NCBI GenBank assembly: GCA_024673055.1
Contig: GCA_024673055.1_4537.1
Source: a phage
DNA length: 64,000 bases
Strand: one strand, 5' to 3'
Shown here: positions 6,562 through 53,533 of the stretch, one piece after another
Layout: each line of letters begins with the position of its first letter
Position numbering within the stretch: position 1 is the first letter of the stretch
Notes under the pieces: model-generated
Told to the model about the DNA's origin: nothing
What the model saw: the letters and a program-made list of their open reading frames with translations, nothing else
The model's database searches: none
Translations under genes and position numbers: made by a program

Positions 6562-7440
6562 ATGTTTGTAAAATCTTTTAAATCTGCTCTGCCTATGGTT
6601 GTTGGTGACGATGCTTCTGTAGCATCCCTTAACAGCATTACAGATATTCCTCTGGAATTTGTAACAGCAGAAGGCTCCCAGTCACACACTATCGGTCTTG
6701 TTCGTTTCGAAGATGACTCTAAATTTGTAAAAGAGTTTTCAGATCTTGAACTGCTTAATGTAGGTCAATCTGTGAAGAAGGTAGATAAAAAGAAAGTTAA
6801 ACGTATTCTGAATGAACGTCTAGAAGAAATGCGTCAGGACATGGAGAGCGAAGGTAAAGAGTTTTATGTCGATAAAGAAGTAGTCAAAGCAATGAAGGAA
6901 GATATTGAATTTGCACTATTGCCTGAAACAGAACCTGAAGATTTCTTTAACTATGTTGTCTTGGATAAAACTACGAATCTTCTTTATGTTCTTAATGGAA
7001 GTAAAAAGGTCGCAGAAGAGATTACTTCTTTCCTCCGTTCCGTTCTGGGGACTTTCCCTTCGGTAGGTTTTAGTGTGCACGAAGAAGCTATTGTAAAAGG
7101 TTTTGGTGAATTGCTGGAGAATCATGAAGCAGATCGTATTACTCTCGGAAATTATATCAAAATGGAGGATAGCGAGGGCGTTGTTGTTTGGAGTAAAGAA
7201 TCCCTATACGAGTCTAAAGCTGTCGAACTAAAAGAGGATGGTAAAGATGTGGTTGCAATCGGTCTTGAATATGACGGTGTTGTAGATTTTGTAGTGGATA
7301 AAGAGTTTAAACTTTCTAAACTACGTTTTCCGAAATATTTTGCAGACGAAGAAGGTAGTATTGAAGCTTCAGTCCTTCTGTGCTTCAATGAGATTCGAGG
7401 TCTGATGGAAGATTTAACCAAAGCAACAATCCTTAAATAA
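6562..7440 (+). CDS. hypothetical acidic protein
   Basis: 292-aa ORF with AGGAGGA SD; no confident family assignment. Confidence 0.5.
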   Translation: MFVKSFKSALPMVVGDDASVASLNSITDIPLEFVTAEGSQSHTIGLVRFEDDSKFVKEFSDLELLNVGQSVKKVDKKKVKRILNERLEEMRQDMESEGKEFYVDKEVVKAMKEDIEFALLPETEPEDFFNYVVLDKTTNLLYVLNGSKKVAEEITSFLRSVLGTFPSVGFSVHEEAIVKGFGELLENHEADRITLGNYIKMEDSEGVVVWSKESLYESKAVELKEDGKDVVAIGLEYDGVVDFVVDKEFKLSKLRFPKYFADEEGSIEASVLLCFNEIRGLMEDLTKATILK

Positions 7441-7444
7441 GTTC

Positions 7445-7473
7445 TTGACTTGCGGGATTAGTTATGATATTAT
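7445..7473 (+). promoter_or_regulatory. sigma70-like early promoter (TTGACT-17-TATTAT)
   Basis: -35 TTGACT 7445-7450, 17-nt spacer, -10 TATTAT 7468-7473. Confidence 0.5.
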
Positions 7474-7502
7474 GCCTACCTACTTAATGAGGTAGGCTTT
7501 TT
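7474..7502 (+). terminator. stem-loop with U-tract overlapping promoter
   Basis: GCCTACC...GGTAGGC stem followed by TTTTT, directly after the -10 element. Confidence 0.45.
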
Positions 7503-7512
7503 AGGAGGCGTT

Positions 7513-7722
7513 ATGAAAAAGATTCTGACAGTCGTTCTTTTAGCTTTTAGTTTCACAGTAGCAGCAGGTCAAATTACTTTAATCTTGTCTGATTCTGAAG
7601 TTAATGGCAACACAAAATATTGCTACTATTCTAACGCTAACCAAGATGAAGTTATAGCAATCCCGAAAAGTCGTCAATGTCCGTATACTAAAACATTCTC
7701 AACAGAGGATGACGATGAATAA
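7513..7722 (+). CDS. small secreted protein (signal peptide)
   Basis: MKKILTVVLLAFSFTVAAG N-terminal signal-like sequence; AGGAGG SD. Confidence 0.5.
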   Translation: MKKILTVVLLAFSFTVAAGQITLILSDSEVNGNTKYCYYSNANQDEVIAIPKSRQCPYTKTFSTEDDDE

Positions 7723-8163
7723 TTAGGGGGAAATATTAGCGGTTATATTTTAATTAAACCTGAAGATCTTCATTTATATGTCAACGAAGAAACAATAGCT
7801 GCAATTGATTATGATCAGATCGCTTTCCAAGCAGCGTCTGCATTAGAGAAAAGAACAATCATTGCGAAGCACATCCCTTCAGGTGCTCAAAAGGAATTTA
7901 AAAATAAGACAGAGTTTTGGGGTAAAAGTAAGACTAAAATTGGAGGTTGGCTAGGAGATACAAATGCAGAAAGAGCCTCCAAAAACAAACGTCCCTTCAC
8001 AAAGGAAGAGTTCGAAATTATTGATAAGCAATACCCGCCAGAAGATATCGGACACACCTTCCAAGCAGCTAAAACAAAAGTCTTAGGTATTCTAAAACAT
8101 CTACGTTTAGAAAAATATTGCGGAGTTATTGGCGTAGGAAAAACTTTCAGACACGCCTTCAAA

Positions 8164-8853
8164 ATGCCTGTAGAATATAAGTCTGAACGATTAGATATCA
8201 AACCACTTCAGCTTTCAGAAACCAAAGATTATCTTGTGGAGTTCCACAATGGTGATGTTGTTACTGTAATAGAGGCTGACGATGAGTTAGAGAAGTATGG
8301 TTTCCAAGGTTATAAAGATTATAAAAGGACGGGTAAATTTTCTTATATCGTAGTGTCTATAGATAAAGATAGTTTACATACTCCTAGTATCCTTTTTAAT
8401 TTCTACAAAGAGGATGGAGTATTTAAAAATCCAGATATAATTCTTATTGACGAGTCTATTGGCGACATATGGATCGTAGATAAAGGTAAAAAGAAAGAAG
8501 TTAAAGGTTGGGGAAGTTATTGGTTAGCCTATCAGATGCTAATGGGAGATAAAACAGATAGTATCCGACCTTATCAAGATTTTGATATTAAGTTCGGAGA
8601 TATTACTTGTTTTAATCTTCTTTCAGCTTGTAAAACTCAAGCAGAACTTTTCCAAACAGTTAAAGATACTTACTACTCGTGGTTCCCAGATGGTGTTAAT
8701 TTTACTTCTTGGGATGGAGAAGAAGTCCATATGACAACAGATGAATGGATAGAAACAATTTTCCAGTTGGTATACATGAAACGCTGGGATAATGACGATA
8801 CAACATTTGAGAGTATGCTTCAGTCATACATCTCACAACAGGAGGCAGAGTGA
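8164..8853 (+). CDS. hypothetical protein; 5' end uncertain (open frame continues upstream to 7723 without ATG/GTG/TTG)
   Basis: Track ORF; ATG 8164 lacks SD; same frame stays open for 147 codons upstream. Confidence 0.45.
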   Translation: MPVEYKSERLDIKPLQLSETKDYLVEFHNGDVVTVIEADDELEKYGFQGYKDYKRTGKFSYIVVSIDKDSLHTPSILFNFYKEDGVFKNPDIILIDESIGDIWIVDKGKKKEVKGWGSYWLAYQMLMGDKTDSIRPYQDFDIKFGDITCFNLLSACKTQAELFQTVKDTYYSWFPDGVNFTSWDGEEVHMTTDEWIETIFQLVYMKRWDNDDTTFESMLQSYISQQEAE

Positions 8854-9809
8854 GCAGATTAACAGAAGAGCAGAAAGCAGATATCCTTAGTATGAGTGCA
8901 GAGGGTATGTCTTCTCGCAATATTGCAGCAATTGTTTTAGGTAGTCCAACAAGAAAAAGCACAGTAAATGATTTCCTTGCACGTTTCGGTGCAAGTAAAC
9001 AAGAGCCAGTTAAAAAGAAACAACCAGTTATTAAAATTATTGATGTTGAAACTGCACCAGAGATTGCATATACTTTCCGTCGATTCAAAGCCTTCATTTC
9101 TCCAGACCAGGTAATTCGTAGGGGTTATTTGTTATCTTACTCTTCTGCTGATTTGTATACAGGTGAAGTAGAAGGTAAGAACTTATCTTCTTATCCTCTT
9201 TTCGATATCGATCATACAGATGATTGGGAACTTTGCCAAGATCTTTGGAATCTTCTGAATGAAGCTGATGTTGTTGTGGCTCATAATGGATACAAGTTTG
9301 ACCGTGCATACATTAACCAACGCTTCGCATATCATGATATGGCTCCACCTTCTAACTATGTAGTTGTTGATACCTTGAAGGCAGCTAAGAAACAGTTTGC
9401 ACTTCCTTCCAATTCTCTTAAAGAAATGGGAGCGTATTTTGAAACAGAAAGTGAAAAACTGGATAACGAGGGGTTCCCTTTATGGAAAGCATGTTGTGAA
9501 GGTGATCGTGATGCTTTTGAACGTATGCAGATTTACAATGATGGTGATGTTGTTTCACTTCGTGATTTGTATATGAAAATCCTTCCGTGGATTCCACAGC
9601 ATCCTAACTTATCCGCTTATTACCCAGATGAGAAAGTCCGTTGTTCTCGTTGCGGCAGTGATCATGTTCACGTTGTTACTGGTAAGCAATACCACACTGC
9701 GGTAAGTTCTTTCGATATCATTCGTTGTGAATCTTGTGGAGGTTTGTCACGTAGTAGAGCAAACACCAGATCCAAAGATAAACGAGCAGCAACTATTATT
9801 GGAATCTAA
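8850..9809 (+). CDS. DnaQ/DEDD-family 3'-5' exonuclease with N-terminal HTH and C-terminal zinc ribbon
   Basis: Exo motifs IIDVETAP (DxE), VVVAHNGYKFDRAYIN, YNDGDVV; CSRCG...CESCGG Cys pairs. Confidence 0.6.
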   Translation: MSRLTEEQKADILSMSAEGMSSRNIAAIVLGSPTRKSTVNDFLARFGASKQEPVKKKQPVIKIIDVETAPEIAYTFRRFKAFISPDQVIRRGYLLSYSSADLYTGEVEGKNLSSYPLFDIDHTDDWELCQDLWNLLNEADVVVAHNGYKFDRAYINQRFAYHDMAPPSNYVVVDTLKAAKKQFALPSNSLKEMGAYFETESEKLDNEGFPLWKACCEGDRDAFERMQIYNDGDVVSLRDLYMKILPWIPQHPNLSAYYPDEKVRCSRCGSDHVHVVTGKQYHTAVSSFDIIRCESCGGLSRSRANTRSKDKRAATIIGI

Positions 9810-9815
9810 TAATCA

Positions 9816-9838
9816 GGGAGCTTATTGCTCCCTTTTTT
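9816..9838 (+). terminator. intrinsic terminator
   Basis: GGGAGC-TTAT-GCTCCC hairpin followed by TTTTTT. Confidence 0.6.
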
Positions 9839-9839
9839 A

Positions 9840-9868
9840 TTGACAAAAATTTGATATTAGTGTATACT
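9840..9868 (+). promoter_or_regulatory. sigma70-like promoter (TTGACA-17-TATACT)
   Basis: -35 TTGACA 9840-9845, spacer 17, -10 TATACT 9863-9868. Confidence 0.55.
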
Positions 9869-9895: not shown

Positions 9896-10123
9896 ATGAG
9901 CATTACATTAACAGGTAACGAAATTTTCGAACTGTTTGAAATGTTAGGTTTAAACTATACCATCGAGAAAGACCCAGATTTACTTGACGTTGAAATAACA
10001 ATTCAAGAAGATACAGCAATCTACAATGATGATGGTGATGTTATCTATCAAGGTAGGGTAGCTTATTATACAGATTACCCAGAAGAAGGCGCAGTAGGAA
10101 TTCAGGAGGAAAATTATGTCTAA
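9896..10123 (+). CDS. hypothetical protein
   Basis: ATG 9896 after AAGGAGGA; downstream of promoter. Confidence 0.5.
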   Translation: MSITLTGNEIFELFEMLGLNYTIEKDPDLLDVEITIQEDTAIYNDDGDVIYQGRVAYYTDYPEEGAVGIQEENYV

Positions 10124-12929: not shown

Positions 12930-12957
12930 TTGACTTTAGTATTAGTTTTAGTATAAT
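12930..12957 (+). promoter_or_regulatory. sigma70-like promoter (TTGACT-16-TATAAT)
   Basis: -35 TTGACT 12930-12935; -10 TATAAT 12952-12957. Confidence 0.55.
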
Positions 12958-12970
12958 ATAGCACAATACT

Positions 12971-12990
12971 GGGAGGAGGTGAGTCCTCCC
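12971..12990 (+). promoter_or_regulatory. leader stem-loop after promoter
   Basis: GGGAGGA-ggtgag-TCCTCCC perfect 7-bp stem immediately downstream of promoter. Confidence 0.45.
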
Positions 12991-13011
12991 ATTCAAAATG
13001 AAGGAGAAAAT

Positions 13012-27920: not shown

Positions 27921-28101
27921 AACAGTAGAAGAAGCCGTAAAAGCAGCTTATGAGGCTTTAGCGGAAGCAGAGCAGTTAGCAGATGAGACTGGTAAAGGTT
28001 TCCGTTTCTCCCCTGAATATGGGATGGGTGGCTATTATGATCCAGAAGATGAAAATGAGAATACTGGAACAAATTGGCATCCATCTTCTTTAAGTTGTTA
28101 A
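27904..28101 (+). CDS. hypothetical protein
   Basis: 65-aa ORF, GGAGAGGAG SD. Confidence 0.4.
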   Translation: MTTKFKTVEEAVKAAYEALAEAEQLADETGKGFRFSPEYGMGGYYDPEDENENTGTNWHPSSLSC

Positions 28102-28112
28102 TAGGAGGTAAA

Positions 28113-28388
28113 GTGGGAATCGAAGATATCAAAGGTTATAAGGCGCATACTGACGATAAGATTGGCAAGGTTAACGCTATTAAAGATGCAGAAGAGCGTT
28201 TAGGTTTAATCTTCAAAGCTTTAGAGGAAGAGTATTGTGAAGCATATCATGGGTCTTTTGACGGCACAGAAAAAGAATTAGATCTTGCATACGAACGTAT
28301 TGATCAAATCCGTTGTGCTATTAAACATTTAAAAGAAGCTAGTATGTGGGCTTGTCGTTCAGTTTTCCAACCAGAGGAGAAATACTAA
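28113..28388 (+). CDS. hypothetical protein
   Basis: AGGAGG then GTG 28113. Confidence 0.4.
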   Translation: MGIEDIKGYKAHTDDKIGKVNAIKDAEERLGLIFKALEEEYCEAYHGSFDGTEKELDLAYERIDQIRCAIKHLKEASMWACRSVFQPEEKY

Positions 28389-28606
28389 TGAGTGATCGTA
28401 ATGTTGAAGAATTAACTGAAAAAGCCCAAGCTATTATGGCTTTAGTGGACGAACTTACAAAAGAAGCTGAAGATGCTGGTTTTGGTCTTAGTTTAGAAAA
28501 TGACGCAATCTGTTTTGAAGATTGGCAATCCTCTTCTTGTTATGGTGAAGGTGATGATGGTTTCGTCGTTAATTCTCAAGGCGTTTGGCACAGTAGTAGC
28601 TGTTAA
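28388..28606 (+). CDS. hypothetical protein
   Basis: GAGGAGAAATACTA then ATG 28388. Confidence 0.4.
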   Translation: MSDRNVEELTEKAQAIMALVDELTKEAEDAGFGLSLENDAICFEDWQSSSCYGEGDDGFVVNSQGVWHSSSC

Positions 28607-28615
28607 GGAGAGATT

Positions 28616-28888
28616 GTGGAGTCTGAAGGCGAACTGCTGATAAAAAAGAAAGTTAAAGAGATGGAACAAGCACAAAGAAAGTTTCGTAAGGAGATTGAAG
28701 AACTTTGTGAACAGTTTCAGGAACAAGCTTGGATAGGTGACTACGGTAACGGAGAAACTTATTACCCTACAGGAACGCCAGCCGCAGATCACTATATTGA
28801 TTTCATTTGTGAAGATTATGGTGTAGAGTTGGATGAAAATGGTTTAACCACAAGAGGTGTTTGGATCTCTTCTTCCTTAATGTGTTAG
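28616..28888 (+). CDS. hypothetical protein
   Basis: GGAGAGATT then GTG 28616. Confidence 0.4.
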   Translation: MESEGELLIKKKVKEMEQAQRKFRKEIEELCEQFQEQAWIGDYGNGETYYPTGTPAADHYIDFICEDYGVELDENGLTTRGVWISSSLMC

Positions 28889-28897
28889 TAAATAATA

Positions 28898-28919
28898 ACC
28901 CGCTTCGGCGGGTTTTTTA
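28898..28919 (+). terminator. intrinsic terminator (UUCG tetraloop)
   Basis: ACCCGC-TTCG-GCGGGT followed by TTTTTT. Confidence 0.65.
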
Positions 28920-28922
28920 TTG

Positions 28923-28951
28923 ACAGGAATCTGGAAGCTTGATAAACTTAA
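28923..28951 (+). promoter_or_regulatory. sigma70-like promoter (TTGACA-17-TAAACT)
   Basis: -35 TTGACA 28923-28928 immediately after terminator; -10 TAAACT. Confidence 0.45.
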
Positions 28952-30317: not shown

Positions 30318-30993
30318 AACAGTTTTGTCTATGTTTGACGGATCTGGGATCATGGTGTTACGTTATGCCGAAGCAGGTCACAAGTGTTTTTGTGTAAACG
30401 CTGATGAAGGGGATCACGGTAAATACGAGGTTAGGATGGAGCACCCAAACATAACCTATGTGAATGCCTGGATAGATTCTACATTCAACCCTGAAGATCA
30501 TGGGATACCTAAACCCGATATTATTTTTGGATTTCCACCCTGCACTATGTTAGCAGGTAGTGGTAGCAAACACGAACGTAGCACAGAGGAATTAGATGAA
30601 GCTTTAGCTAATATTCGTGTAGTGGAAGCTTTGGGTAACAAATATAATGTTCCTTGGATGATTGAGAACCCAGTAGGTAAACTTTCAACCTTATGGCGTA
30701 AACCCGATTTTTACTTTGATCCTTATGAGTATGGTGGGTATTTGTTTGAAGAGGAAGGAAGCTTTCATCCTAAAATGCCTACCCGTGATGGGTATACAAA
30801 GAAAACTTGTATTTGGCACGGCAATGGTTTTGTTCAACCAGTGAAGAAACCAGTAGATCATATAGGCTGCTTCTGGGGTTGGAAAAGCTTAGGTGGAGCT
30901 AGTGCAAAAACAAAACAACTTAGATCACTAACCGCACGTGGTTTTGCTCGTGCAGTGTTTTTGTCTAACAATCTTCTAGATAAGGAGAAATAA
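30310..30993 (+). CDS. cytosine-C5 methyltransferase-like protein (minimal, PCT variant)
   Basis: Start ATG 30310 after GGAGG; FDGSG (motif I-like), FGFPPCTMLAG (motif IV PC(Q)-like), IENPVGKL (motif VI ENV-like); no obvious target-recognition domain. Confidence 0.45.
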   Translation: MSKTVLSMFDGSGIMVLRYAEAGHKCFCVNADEGDHGKYEVRMEHPNITYVNAWIDSTFNPEDHGIPKPDIIFGFPPCTMLAGSGSKHERSTEELDEALANIRVVEALGNKYNVPWMIENPVGKLSTLWRKPDFYFDPYEYGGYLFEEEGSFHPKMPTRDGYTKKTCIWHGNGFVQPVKKPVDHIGCFWGWKSLGGASAKTKQLRSLTARGFARAVFLSNNLLDKEK

Positions 30994-31646
30994 TGTCAAA
31001 TTCAAAACCAGTGGTTGCTTATCAAGTAGATCGTAATGATGGTGAAGGAAGTGTTGTTATTTTCAGTACACACGGTCTTGAGGCTCGTCGAAAAGGTGCA
31101 TATCGTTTAGAATGTGAGTTTGAAGACTGCACAAGCCACCGTGTCAAACAATTCGATCAATATGCTGATAAAGGCTTCGTCCCTATCAAAGCGTTACTGG
31201 AAGATGGTTGGTGGGTATATTCTGCTTTTGATTACTCAAAACTGGAGGAGTCAGCTTCGTGCGCCTCCGAGATCGAATATGATGATTACTATGACACTCT
31301 ATACCTTCCAGAATGGCTTGTCTTTTCTCCTGATGAGAGAAGTGTCTGGAAAACGTGGGAAGAAATGGAGAGACATGCGTATAGCATCAATGAAGCTTTA
31401 GATCGTAAAGCTTGGTTTATTGAGGCAGTAAAGGCGGCATACCCCCAATTCTCATTCTGTGATTTCACTGGTGGCCCAGGATACATTACACATACAGCCT
31501 CTTTTGAGTTTCCTGGTTCACGTTATAAGGGTAATGTTTATTGGGACTGGGATGAAAATAAACAACCTTCGGCTCAAGACTTCCGTTGCTATGTTTGTCA
31601 AGGTGATCAAGAAGCCCTTGACAAATACCTTGAAAGTCTGGTATAG
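30993..31646 (+). CDS. hypothetical protein
   Basis: 217-aa ORF, AAGGAGAAATA SD. Confidence 0.5.
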   Translation: MSNSKPVVAYQVDRNDGEGSVVIFSTHGLEARRKGAYRLECEFEDCTSHRVKQFDQYADKGFVPIKALLEDGWWVYSAFDYSKLEESASCASEIEYDDYYDTLYLPEWLVFSPDERSVWKTWEEMERHAYSINEALDRKAWFIEAVKAAYPQFSFCDFTGGPGYITHTASFEFPGSRYKGNVYWDWDENKQPSAQDFRCYVCQGDQEALDKYLESLV

Positions 31647-31654
31647 TGCCGATA

Positions 31655-31690
31655 TCTGAACAAAGCCTCCTGTTTCAGGGGGCTTTTCTT
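31655..31690 (+). terminator. probable intrinsic terminator
   Basis: GCCTCC-tgtttca-GGGGGC stem-loop followed by TTTTCTTTT. Confidence 0.45.
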
Positions 31691-33310: not shown

Positions 33311-33337
33311 AAAGGCACCCAAGTGGGTGCCTTTTCT
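33311..33337. terminator. bidirectional terminator at convergence point
   Basis: GGCACCC-AAGT-GGGTGCC hairpin flanked by T-tracts on both strands between converging gene blocks. Confidence 0.6.
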
Positions 33338-53299: not shown

Positions 53300-53533
53300 C
53301 TATTTTTTATAAAATTTTTCTGCTGTGATATTCTTCCCAGTAGGCTTAACCACTTGCAAGATCTTATCATGTGCCGAACGTCCAAAAGAGTAAGATCCGT
53401 ACACGGTAAACCAATAATCCCCGTTCGGTTGAACGGTTACGGCGGCGTACGGTGTACCTCTTTCATTATCCCCGATAAAGTGAGAAACATTACCGTTAAC
53501 ATTTGGTTTAGTGCTTTTAATTTGTTCGATCAT
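53300..53533 (-). CDS. hypothetical protein
   Basis: 77-aa track ORF. Confidence 0.45.
   Translation of the reverse strand: MIEQIKSTKPNVNGNVSHFIGDNERGTPYAAVTVQPNGDYWFTVYGSYSFGRSAHDKILQVVKPTGKNITAEKFYKK

Follow-up and report, generated by a model that had tools for sequence, protein, structure and literature searches.

How the transcription of one set of genes could end and that of the next begin within a single short intergenic gap is the question raised by positions 7445-7502 of the DNA analyzed here. The window, i.e., the whole stretch of 64,000 nucleotides, belongs to a Phapecoctavirus (a phAPEC8/ESCO13-like E. coli myovirus of the subfamily Stephanstirmvirinae) and is 98-99% identical to many such phages. 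DNA-metabolism genes on the + strand fill positions 1 to about 33,300, and small genes on the - strand make up the remainder. The 7445 unit is housed in a 72-nt gap between an rdgC-like gene and a gene for a small signal-peptide protein. The first-pass annotation had placed in this gap a TTGACT-17-TATTAT promoter followed by a hairpin and a U-tract (7445-7502), and every one of these elements was found in the sequence. The unit and its neighboring genes comprise the following features:

6562-7440, + strand: rdgC-like recombination-associated gene (ORF list; named 'exonuclease recombination-associated' or RdgC in ESCO13 and relatives)
7445-7450, + strand: -35 hexamer TTGACT (sequence and scan)
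7465-7473, + strand: extended -10 element TGaTATTAT, with TG at 7465-7466 and TATTAT at 7468-7473 (alignment of relatives)
7474-7497, + strand: terminator hairpin, with 5' arm 7474-7481, loop 7482-7489, and 3' arm 7490-7497 (scan, folding, and covariation)
7480-7482, + strand: predicted transcription start (position inferred from the sigma70 spacing rule)
7498-7502, + strand: T5 tract (U-tract), fused to the Shine-Dalgarno sequence (sequence)
7503-7508, + strand: Shine-Dalgarno sequence AGGAGG of the small gene (sequence; ribosome-binding site annotated in ESCO13 and phi92)
7513-7722, + strand: gene for a 69-aa signal-peptide protein, PHROG 4641, with ATG at 7513 (ORF; signal peptide annotated in phi92)
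7735-8853, + strand: exonuclease gene, PHROG 107, with an ATT start, second in the operon (PHROG and annotation)
8850-9809, + strand: exonuclease subunit gene, PHROG 403, RNase_H_2, last in the operon (ORF list and PHROG)

The upstream half of the unit has the composition of a sigma70 extended -10 promoter: a TTGACA-like -35 hexamer, a 17-nt spacer (16-18 nt being the usual range), a TGn element, and a TAnnnT hexamer, with a score of 10/12 plus the TG. Sigma70 transcription starts about 7-9 nt past the -10 element, which would place the start at 7480-7482, where the 5' arm of the hairpin gives way to the loop. The C-T-A found at these three positions is conserved (C is invariant, T and A nearly so, in the alignment of 17 distinct sequences), making A7482 the likeliest predicted +1. 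Promoters of the sigma70 type are the expected kind in the related rV5 group (PMC3606486).

The hairpin that follows (GCCTACCT/ACTTAATG/AGGTAGGC) has eight base pairs, five of them G:C, and folds at -12.7 kcal/mol, or at -13.9 kcal/mol with the U-tract included. A GC-rich stem of about 5-12 bp on the transcribed strand with a U-tract directly 3' of it is the hallmark of an intrinsic (Rho-independent) terminator, and both are present here. The same hairpin is annotated independently in a Schickermooser database record as an ARNold terminator of -13.9 kcal/mol, while Rfam models at the gathering threshold gave no match in the whole window on either strand. Folding of the RNA from different start sites indicates how much of the structure a nested transcript could retain: the energy falls to -4.5 kcal/mol for a start at 7480, to -1.4 kcal/mol at 7481, and to 0 at 7482, compared with -12.7 to -13.9 kcal/mol for the full stem. 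An alternative 7-bp register (7479-7496, -6.9 to -7.6 kcal/mol) also exists; if transcription started at 7478-7479, this register together with the U5 tract could, according to the folding model, still terminate some of the promoter's own transcripts.

Promoter-like matches (at least 9/12) are not enriched in the window (72 versus 63 +/- 6 expected from shuffles), and the folding energy of the 72-nt region on the + strand is not significantly different from that of shuffled sequences (z = -1.25), so folding energy alone cannot support the 7445 element. The composite of a promoter of at least 10/12 and a terminator hairpin 0-6 nt past its -10 element occurs once in the window, as compared with a mean of 0.033 in 60 dinucleotide shuffles, two of which contain one. 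The exact 7445 geometry is likewise unique in the window, and a search of 213 kb of DNA from relatives found it at the homologous locus only. As judged from sequence, the decisive evidence against a chance arrangement is comparative, namely conservation and covariation.

Relatives were gathered via the upstream RdgC protein or by BLAST of the flanking DNA, the promoter playing no part in their selection. A scan of viral contigs with a single RdgC protein gave one locus only, and an alignment was then used as the query; the resulting sample of 24 loci contains 17 distinct sequences, the most distant of which share 41% RdgC identity. A loose scan with the promoter pattern CTTGACTT-N13-15-TGNTANNATGCC was rejected: it returned 91 mostly unrelated loci and biases the sample towards the promoter. 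Two loci from that scan, L061 and L084, were kept as hairpin variants, and both were recovered again via the unbiased RdgC anchor.

In all 24 relatives the unit is flanked by the same two genes (the downstream signal-peptide gene being present throughout), measures 71-80 nt, and displays one order of elements: stop codon, TTGAC[AT], a 17- or 18-nt spacer, TGnTAnnAT, hairpin, Shine-Dalgarno sequence, and the ATG of the signal-peptide gene. Across the 17 distinct sequences TTGAC, TG, TA, and AT, followed by GCC, are invariant, while none of the spacer positions is; the 11 promoter-defining positions are thus unchanged, though the flanking genes share just 41-68% protein identity. The idea that the unit is far better conserved than the flanking genes was dropped: at 0.64-0.83, its identity exceeds that of the adjacent coding DNA (0.57-0.75) only slightly, and the conservation is concentrated in particular positions and in base pairing. 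Such a slight overall excess implies that conservation is position-specific, as a functional extended -10 promoter predicts.

The hairpin is retained with equal regularity. In 17 of 17 sequences it begins at the first base past the -10 element, with energies of -10.8 to -14.1 kcal/mol, and in 14 of the 17 the stem is followed by T3-T5. The T-run is degenerate in three lineages that retain the hairpin (ATTATG in KP13-26-like phages, ATTAAC in L125, and TTCATT in Tr1), and pair 5, inside the stem, is mismatched in two lineages. Shorter hairpins being misaligned by MAFFT, the comparison used an alignment of the arms alone, with pairs numbered from the base of the stem. The stems have been rewritten with pairing kept: the window's GCCTACCT/AGGTAGGC corresponds to GCCTACCTA/TAGGTGGGC in phi92, with a U:G pair, and further versions are GCCCATCTA/TAGGTGGGC, GCCTCTCA/TGAGAGGC (L114), and GCCCTTC/GAAGGGC (L108-L115). 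Among the seven distinct, phylogenetically related stems, 94.6% of the cells of this alignment are paired, compared with 35-61% in slid registers, compensatory changes on both sides occur in four of the eight pairs, and the covariation score is 0.405 versus 0.185 in shuffles, none of 500 shuffles reaching 0.405.

Two aspects of this pattern bear on the molecule under selection. Read on the opposite strand, the U:G pairs of the phi92-like and L107-like stems would turn into C.A mismatches, which points to selection on the + strand RNA. In addition, any plausible +1 falls downstream of the covarying pairs 4-6 (7477-7479), which suggests that the stem is selected in RNA arriving from upstream. 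Constraint on 7477-7479 that applies only in read-through RNA argues that the hairpin is a terminator for the rdgC operon.

The rdgC-like gene is the final gene of the upstream transcription unit, and a search of the 56-nt gap 5' of it for a promoter-like site found none. From its sequence context, the signal-peptide gene is predicted to be the first gene driven by the nested promoter, at the head of the exonuclease operon. The exonuclease gene itself has an unusual 5' end: its 372-aa ORF (7735-8853) has no ATG, GTG, or TTG near the 5' end (window positions 7720-7760), and the conserved N-terminus I-S/G-G-Y-I-L-I starts at ATT in the window, phi92, Tr1, and phiWec179 and at ATC in KP13-26, with GGGGG or GGAGG 5-7 nt upstream of the start. 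The frame relative to the preceding small gene differs among relatives, which argues for a conserved non-canonical start and not for stop read-through. Many records give the exonuclease as a shortened, 229-aa version with its start at ATG 8164.

In light of these observations, the 7445 unit is probably a single-copy, syntenically fixed element combining an intrinsic terminator with a sigma70 extended -10 promoter nested against it, so that one transcription unit ends and the next one starts. RNA polymerase arriving from the upstream DNA-metabolism/rdgC operon would transcribe the full stem (7474-7497) and the U5 tract and terminate at about 7500. For polymerase initiating at the nested promoter, the start would fall at about 7480-7482, where the 5' arm meets the loop; without that arm, the RNA could form no terminator stem, and transcription would continue past the T-tract. 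The nested transcript would extend through the gene for the small secreted protein and both exonuclease genes as far as a terminator at 9815-9833, and two transcription units would be separated within 72 nt. We infer the exact +1, the promoter activity, the efficiency of termination, and the escape from it from these sequence features.

Several further promoter and hairpin elements in the window provide a context for this reading:

9815-9833, + strand: terminator hairpin AGGGAGC/GCTCCCT with T6, ending the exonuclease operon (scan; covarying stems in 8 of 8 relatives examined)
9840-9868, + strand: putative promoter TTGACA-17-TATACT, driving a small gene at 9896-10123 (scan)
12930-12959, + strand: promoter TTGACT-16-TATAAT (12930-12957) or, in the register common to the relatives, TTGACT-18-TAATAT (retained in 9 of 9 sequences)
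12970-12991, + strand: 5'-UTR stem-loop TGGGAGGA/TCCTCCCA, -14.9 kcal/mol, with no U-tract (covarying stems in 9 of 9 sequences)
28897-28914, + strand: terminator hairpin AACCCGC/GCGGGTT with T6 (scan; identical in KP13-26)
28920-28948, + strand: promoter TTGACA-17-TAAACT with TG, after the terminator (the same promoter shifted by 11 nt in KP13-26)
31618-31686, + strand: promoter-like TTGACA-18-TATAGT with TG, then an 11-bp terminator (31662-31686) with a T-run, 14 nt past the -10 element (scan)
62468, 61582, 60940, 60486, 60154, 59836, 58980, 58545, 58078, 56926, 55190, and 53610, - strand: -35 starts of repeated cassettes (scan)

The terminator-then-promoter pairs that the first-pass annotation had reported at 9816-9868 and 28898-28951 are both present, with the T-tract abutting the -35 element. 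At the first of these, the promoter is confined to the window, L129, and L130; these three carry an additional small gene, a lineage-specific insertion encoding 75 aa (9896-10123), which the promoter accompanies in a moron-like arrangement. The other six of the eight relative loci (L128, L131, L133, and L139-L141; phi92 and L131 being near-identical, these count as five different phages) have the terminator followed directly by a Shine-Dalgarno sequence and ATG without a promoter, and there the post-exonuclease terminator must act as a leaky internal attenuator. Upstream of the second pair, the region 28389-28890 contains two small + strand genes, ending at 28888. The last ~59 nt (28332-28390) of a small gene at 28074-28388 are about 90-93% identical to hundreds of T4-like records (Tequatrovirus and Mosigvirus), in which the patch also ends a small hypothetical gene; it is shared between unrelated phage families.

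The unit at 12930-12990 had been described as similar to 7445. A promoter and a stem-loop are indeed present, but they work differently: the transcript includes the complete hairpin, and no U-tract is present. In the nine sequences with this unit, the hairpins start 10-13 nt past the -10 element, are followed by no T-run, and have folding energies between -11.9 and -14.9 kcal/mol, which makes this a 5'-UTR hairpin, of a different class from 7445. The 5' arm of this class is always purine-rich and resembles a Shine-Dalgarno sequence (GGGAGGA, GGGAGAG, and GAGAGGGA, in the window at 12970-12991 and in the homologs L129-L141), while the 3' arm resembles an anti-Shine-Dalgarno sequence (TCCTCCC), the real Shine-Dalgarno sequence being located about 15 nt further downstream.

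Hairpins of the 12930 class abound on the - strand. In that block, 20 of 30 strong promoter-like sites fall in coding-strand gaps, compared with 4.9 expected (P about 1e-9), and twelve of these bear a stem-loop of this kind. Between positions 53500 and 62500 of the window, small early genes are preceded by such repeated cassettes, at least 12 in number. Their layout comprises an A-rich upstream region, TTGACA-16-TAAnnT, a GC-rich stem-loop 8-14 nt further on with no T-tract, a Shine-Dalgarno sequence, and ATG, and the stem-loops are near-identical (GGGCGGCAATGGTGCCGCTC five times, besides GGCGGGAA..TTCCCGCC variants). The region is highly mosaic among close relatives; in a comparison with PNJ1809-36, only 4 of 14 indel ends lie on strong - strand cassettes, with repeated sequence at the junction, which is at most suggestive of PeSL-like shuffling.

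The site at 31618, absent from the first-pass annotation, lies inside the 3' end of a gene at 30993-31646. Its terminator starts 14 nt past the -10 element, so the whole terminator would be part of any transcript from this site. Both phi92 (with TATAAT as the -10 element) and phiWec181 match the site at about 95% identity, and the C-terminal coding DNA around it is well conserved too. The + and - gene blocks converge at 33311-33334, where a 10-bp hairpin without mismatches (AAAGGCACCC..GGGTGCCTTT) has T-runs on both strands; from its sequence, it is a candidate bidirectional terminator.

Other explanations of the 7445 hairpin have to be weighed against a nested terminator. It might serve mainly as an attenuator, or as an RNA 3'-end, processing, or stability element, with substantial read-through from upstream and the nested promoter boosting the downstream genes. 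The T-tract of just 5 nt is compatible with this, and its decay in three lineages that keep the stem suggests that the stem may not need efficient termination, or may be an attenuator there; moreover, the post-exonuclease terminators that precede a gene without a promoter in six relatives must leak. The T3-T5 directly past a GC-rich stem base in 14 of the 17 distinct sequences, the invariance of the GCC/GGC base beside the T-run, as in intrinsic terminators, and the ARNold call all speak for termination, and we regard the attenuator as unlikely, though not negligible. It appears very unlikely that the stem-loop is instead part of the RNA made from the nested promoter, serving there as a 5'-UTR hairpin that affects stability or controls translation. 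The class is common in the genome (the 12 - strand cassettes and the 12930 unit), and the alternative 7-bp register from 7479 could provide a structure of this kind; however, members of the class have their hairpin 8-14 nt past the -10 element and no T-run, whereas at 7445 the distance is 0 nt in 17 of 17 sequences and a T-run follows. The covarying 7477-7479 pairs would not be transcribed from the 7445 promoter, and the alternative register is broken in Tr1, where only four pairs are left.

The inverted repeat could also be considered as a DNA operator, bound by a dimeric repressor that overlaps the +1 and regulates the promoter. It covers -6 to +18 relative to the predicted +1, which is the classic operator position, but its arms have been rewritten among lineages with complementarity kept, G:T pairs break the symmetry of the DNA, and a T-run follows the repeat. 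Matches to the stem motif elsewhere in the window are at the chance level (8 with at most one mismatch versus 6.3 expected), and the idea of a repeated operator was dropped, the motif not being repeated in the window. An operator is accordingly highly improbable. Equally hard to credit is a functional terminator accompanied by promoter-like hexamers that match by chance: matches of at least 9/12 are no commoner in the window than in shuffles (72 versus 63), yet TTGAC, TG, TA, and AT are all invariant across divergent relatives while the spacer is free to vary, and strong sites are enriched in coding-strand gaps.

The reading of a promoter nested against a terminator agrees with the proposal of the first-pass annotation that transcripts started inside the stem would escape and those from upstream would terminate; the invariant promoter, the covarying hairpin abutting it, and the folding by start site support this in silico. 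The arrangement had also been called insulating. This is apt for the downstream genes, but not for the promoter itself: an upstream polymerase crosses the promoter before terminating, so that the promoter is not shielded from occlusion. The exact 0-nt nesting may even couple upstream transcription, promoter occupancy, and the efficiency of termination in a transcriptional-interference switch, although we consider this doubtful. In such a switch, upstream polymerases could pause or terminate about 25 bp past the -10 element, and the invariant GCC at the stem base could double as a GC-rich discriminator.

Composite elements of a related design are known from T4-like phages. Promoter-early stem-loop (PeSL) cassettes have been described in RB49/phi1, PST/T4, and nt-1/KVP40 (Arbiol et al. 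2010, PMC2839356; Comeau et al. 2014, PMC4122927); they form five positional subclasses, including ones with stem-loops overlapping or just past the -10 element, and their promoter and terminator activity was shown in lacZ reporters (PMC2839356, PMC4122927). Like the 7445 unit, PeSLs combine a sigma70-type promoter with a stem-loop in intergenic regions of large lytic coliphages, the stem-loop being read as a terminator or attenuator of upstream transcription, and by analogy the 7445 unit may work like the subclass whose stem-loop overlaps or immediately follows the -10 element. The two differ in other respects. PeSLs are multi-copy, mutually similar, and about 100 bp long, whereas the 7445 unit is single-copy, with a stem motif unique in the window; PeSLs are concentrated in hyperplastic regions with variable ORFans and indel breakpoints, and have been implicated in gene shuffling by recombination, whereas the 7445 unit is syntenic between conserved core genes; and their hosts are T4-like myoviruses (Straboviridae), as opposed to a Phapecoctavirus of the Stephanstirmvirinae. 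The - strand cassettes are closer to PeSLs than 7445 is in having at least 12 copies, but their hairpin is inside the transcript and lacks a U-tract.

Ordinary terminator-then-promoter tandems have the same function as that proposed for the 7445 unit, i.e., ending one transcription unit and starting the next. At 7445 the order is reversed, with the promoter first and the hairpin running from the base after the -10 element; escape would therefore depend on a start inside the stem, and polymerases from upstream have to pass over the promoter on their way to the termination site. Stabilizing stem-loops at the 5' end of E. coli mRNAs, such as the stable hairpin near the 5' end of the ompA 5' UTR, are possible analogs of the 12930 unit and the - strand cassettes, which have a hairpin a few nucleotides from the 5' end and no U-tract, and differ from the 7445 hairpin, whose 5' arm is upstream of the predicted +1. 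In the searchable literature on Phapecoctavirus, Justusliebigvirus, phi92, and Stephanstirmvirinae, no description of such units and no transcript maps were found, and an ONT-cappable-seq phage paper contained no comparable case.

Composite promoter/stem-loop elements being already documented in T4-like phages, the general understanding of transcription is unchanged, and the 7445 unit represents, in compact form, a type of regulatory element known from other phages. It would nevertheless provide an example of origin-dependent termination, in which the same 24 nt are a terminator for upstream RNA and invisible to RNA started 6-8 nt inside them. As a 72-nt natural part predicted both to terminate and to re-initiate transcription, the element might be of use in synthetic biology. 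It would also mark transcription-unit boundaries in phAPEC8/phi92-like therapeutic phages, whose records are mostly without regulatory annotation. The geometry is constant across the whole phage subfamily. If the interference switch were real, it would set when in infection the small secreted protein and the exonuclease operon are expressed, and the retention of the 0-nt offset across the subfamily and beyond (RdgC identity of 41%) would reflect selection on this coupling.
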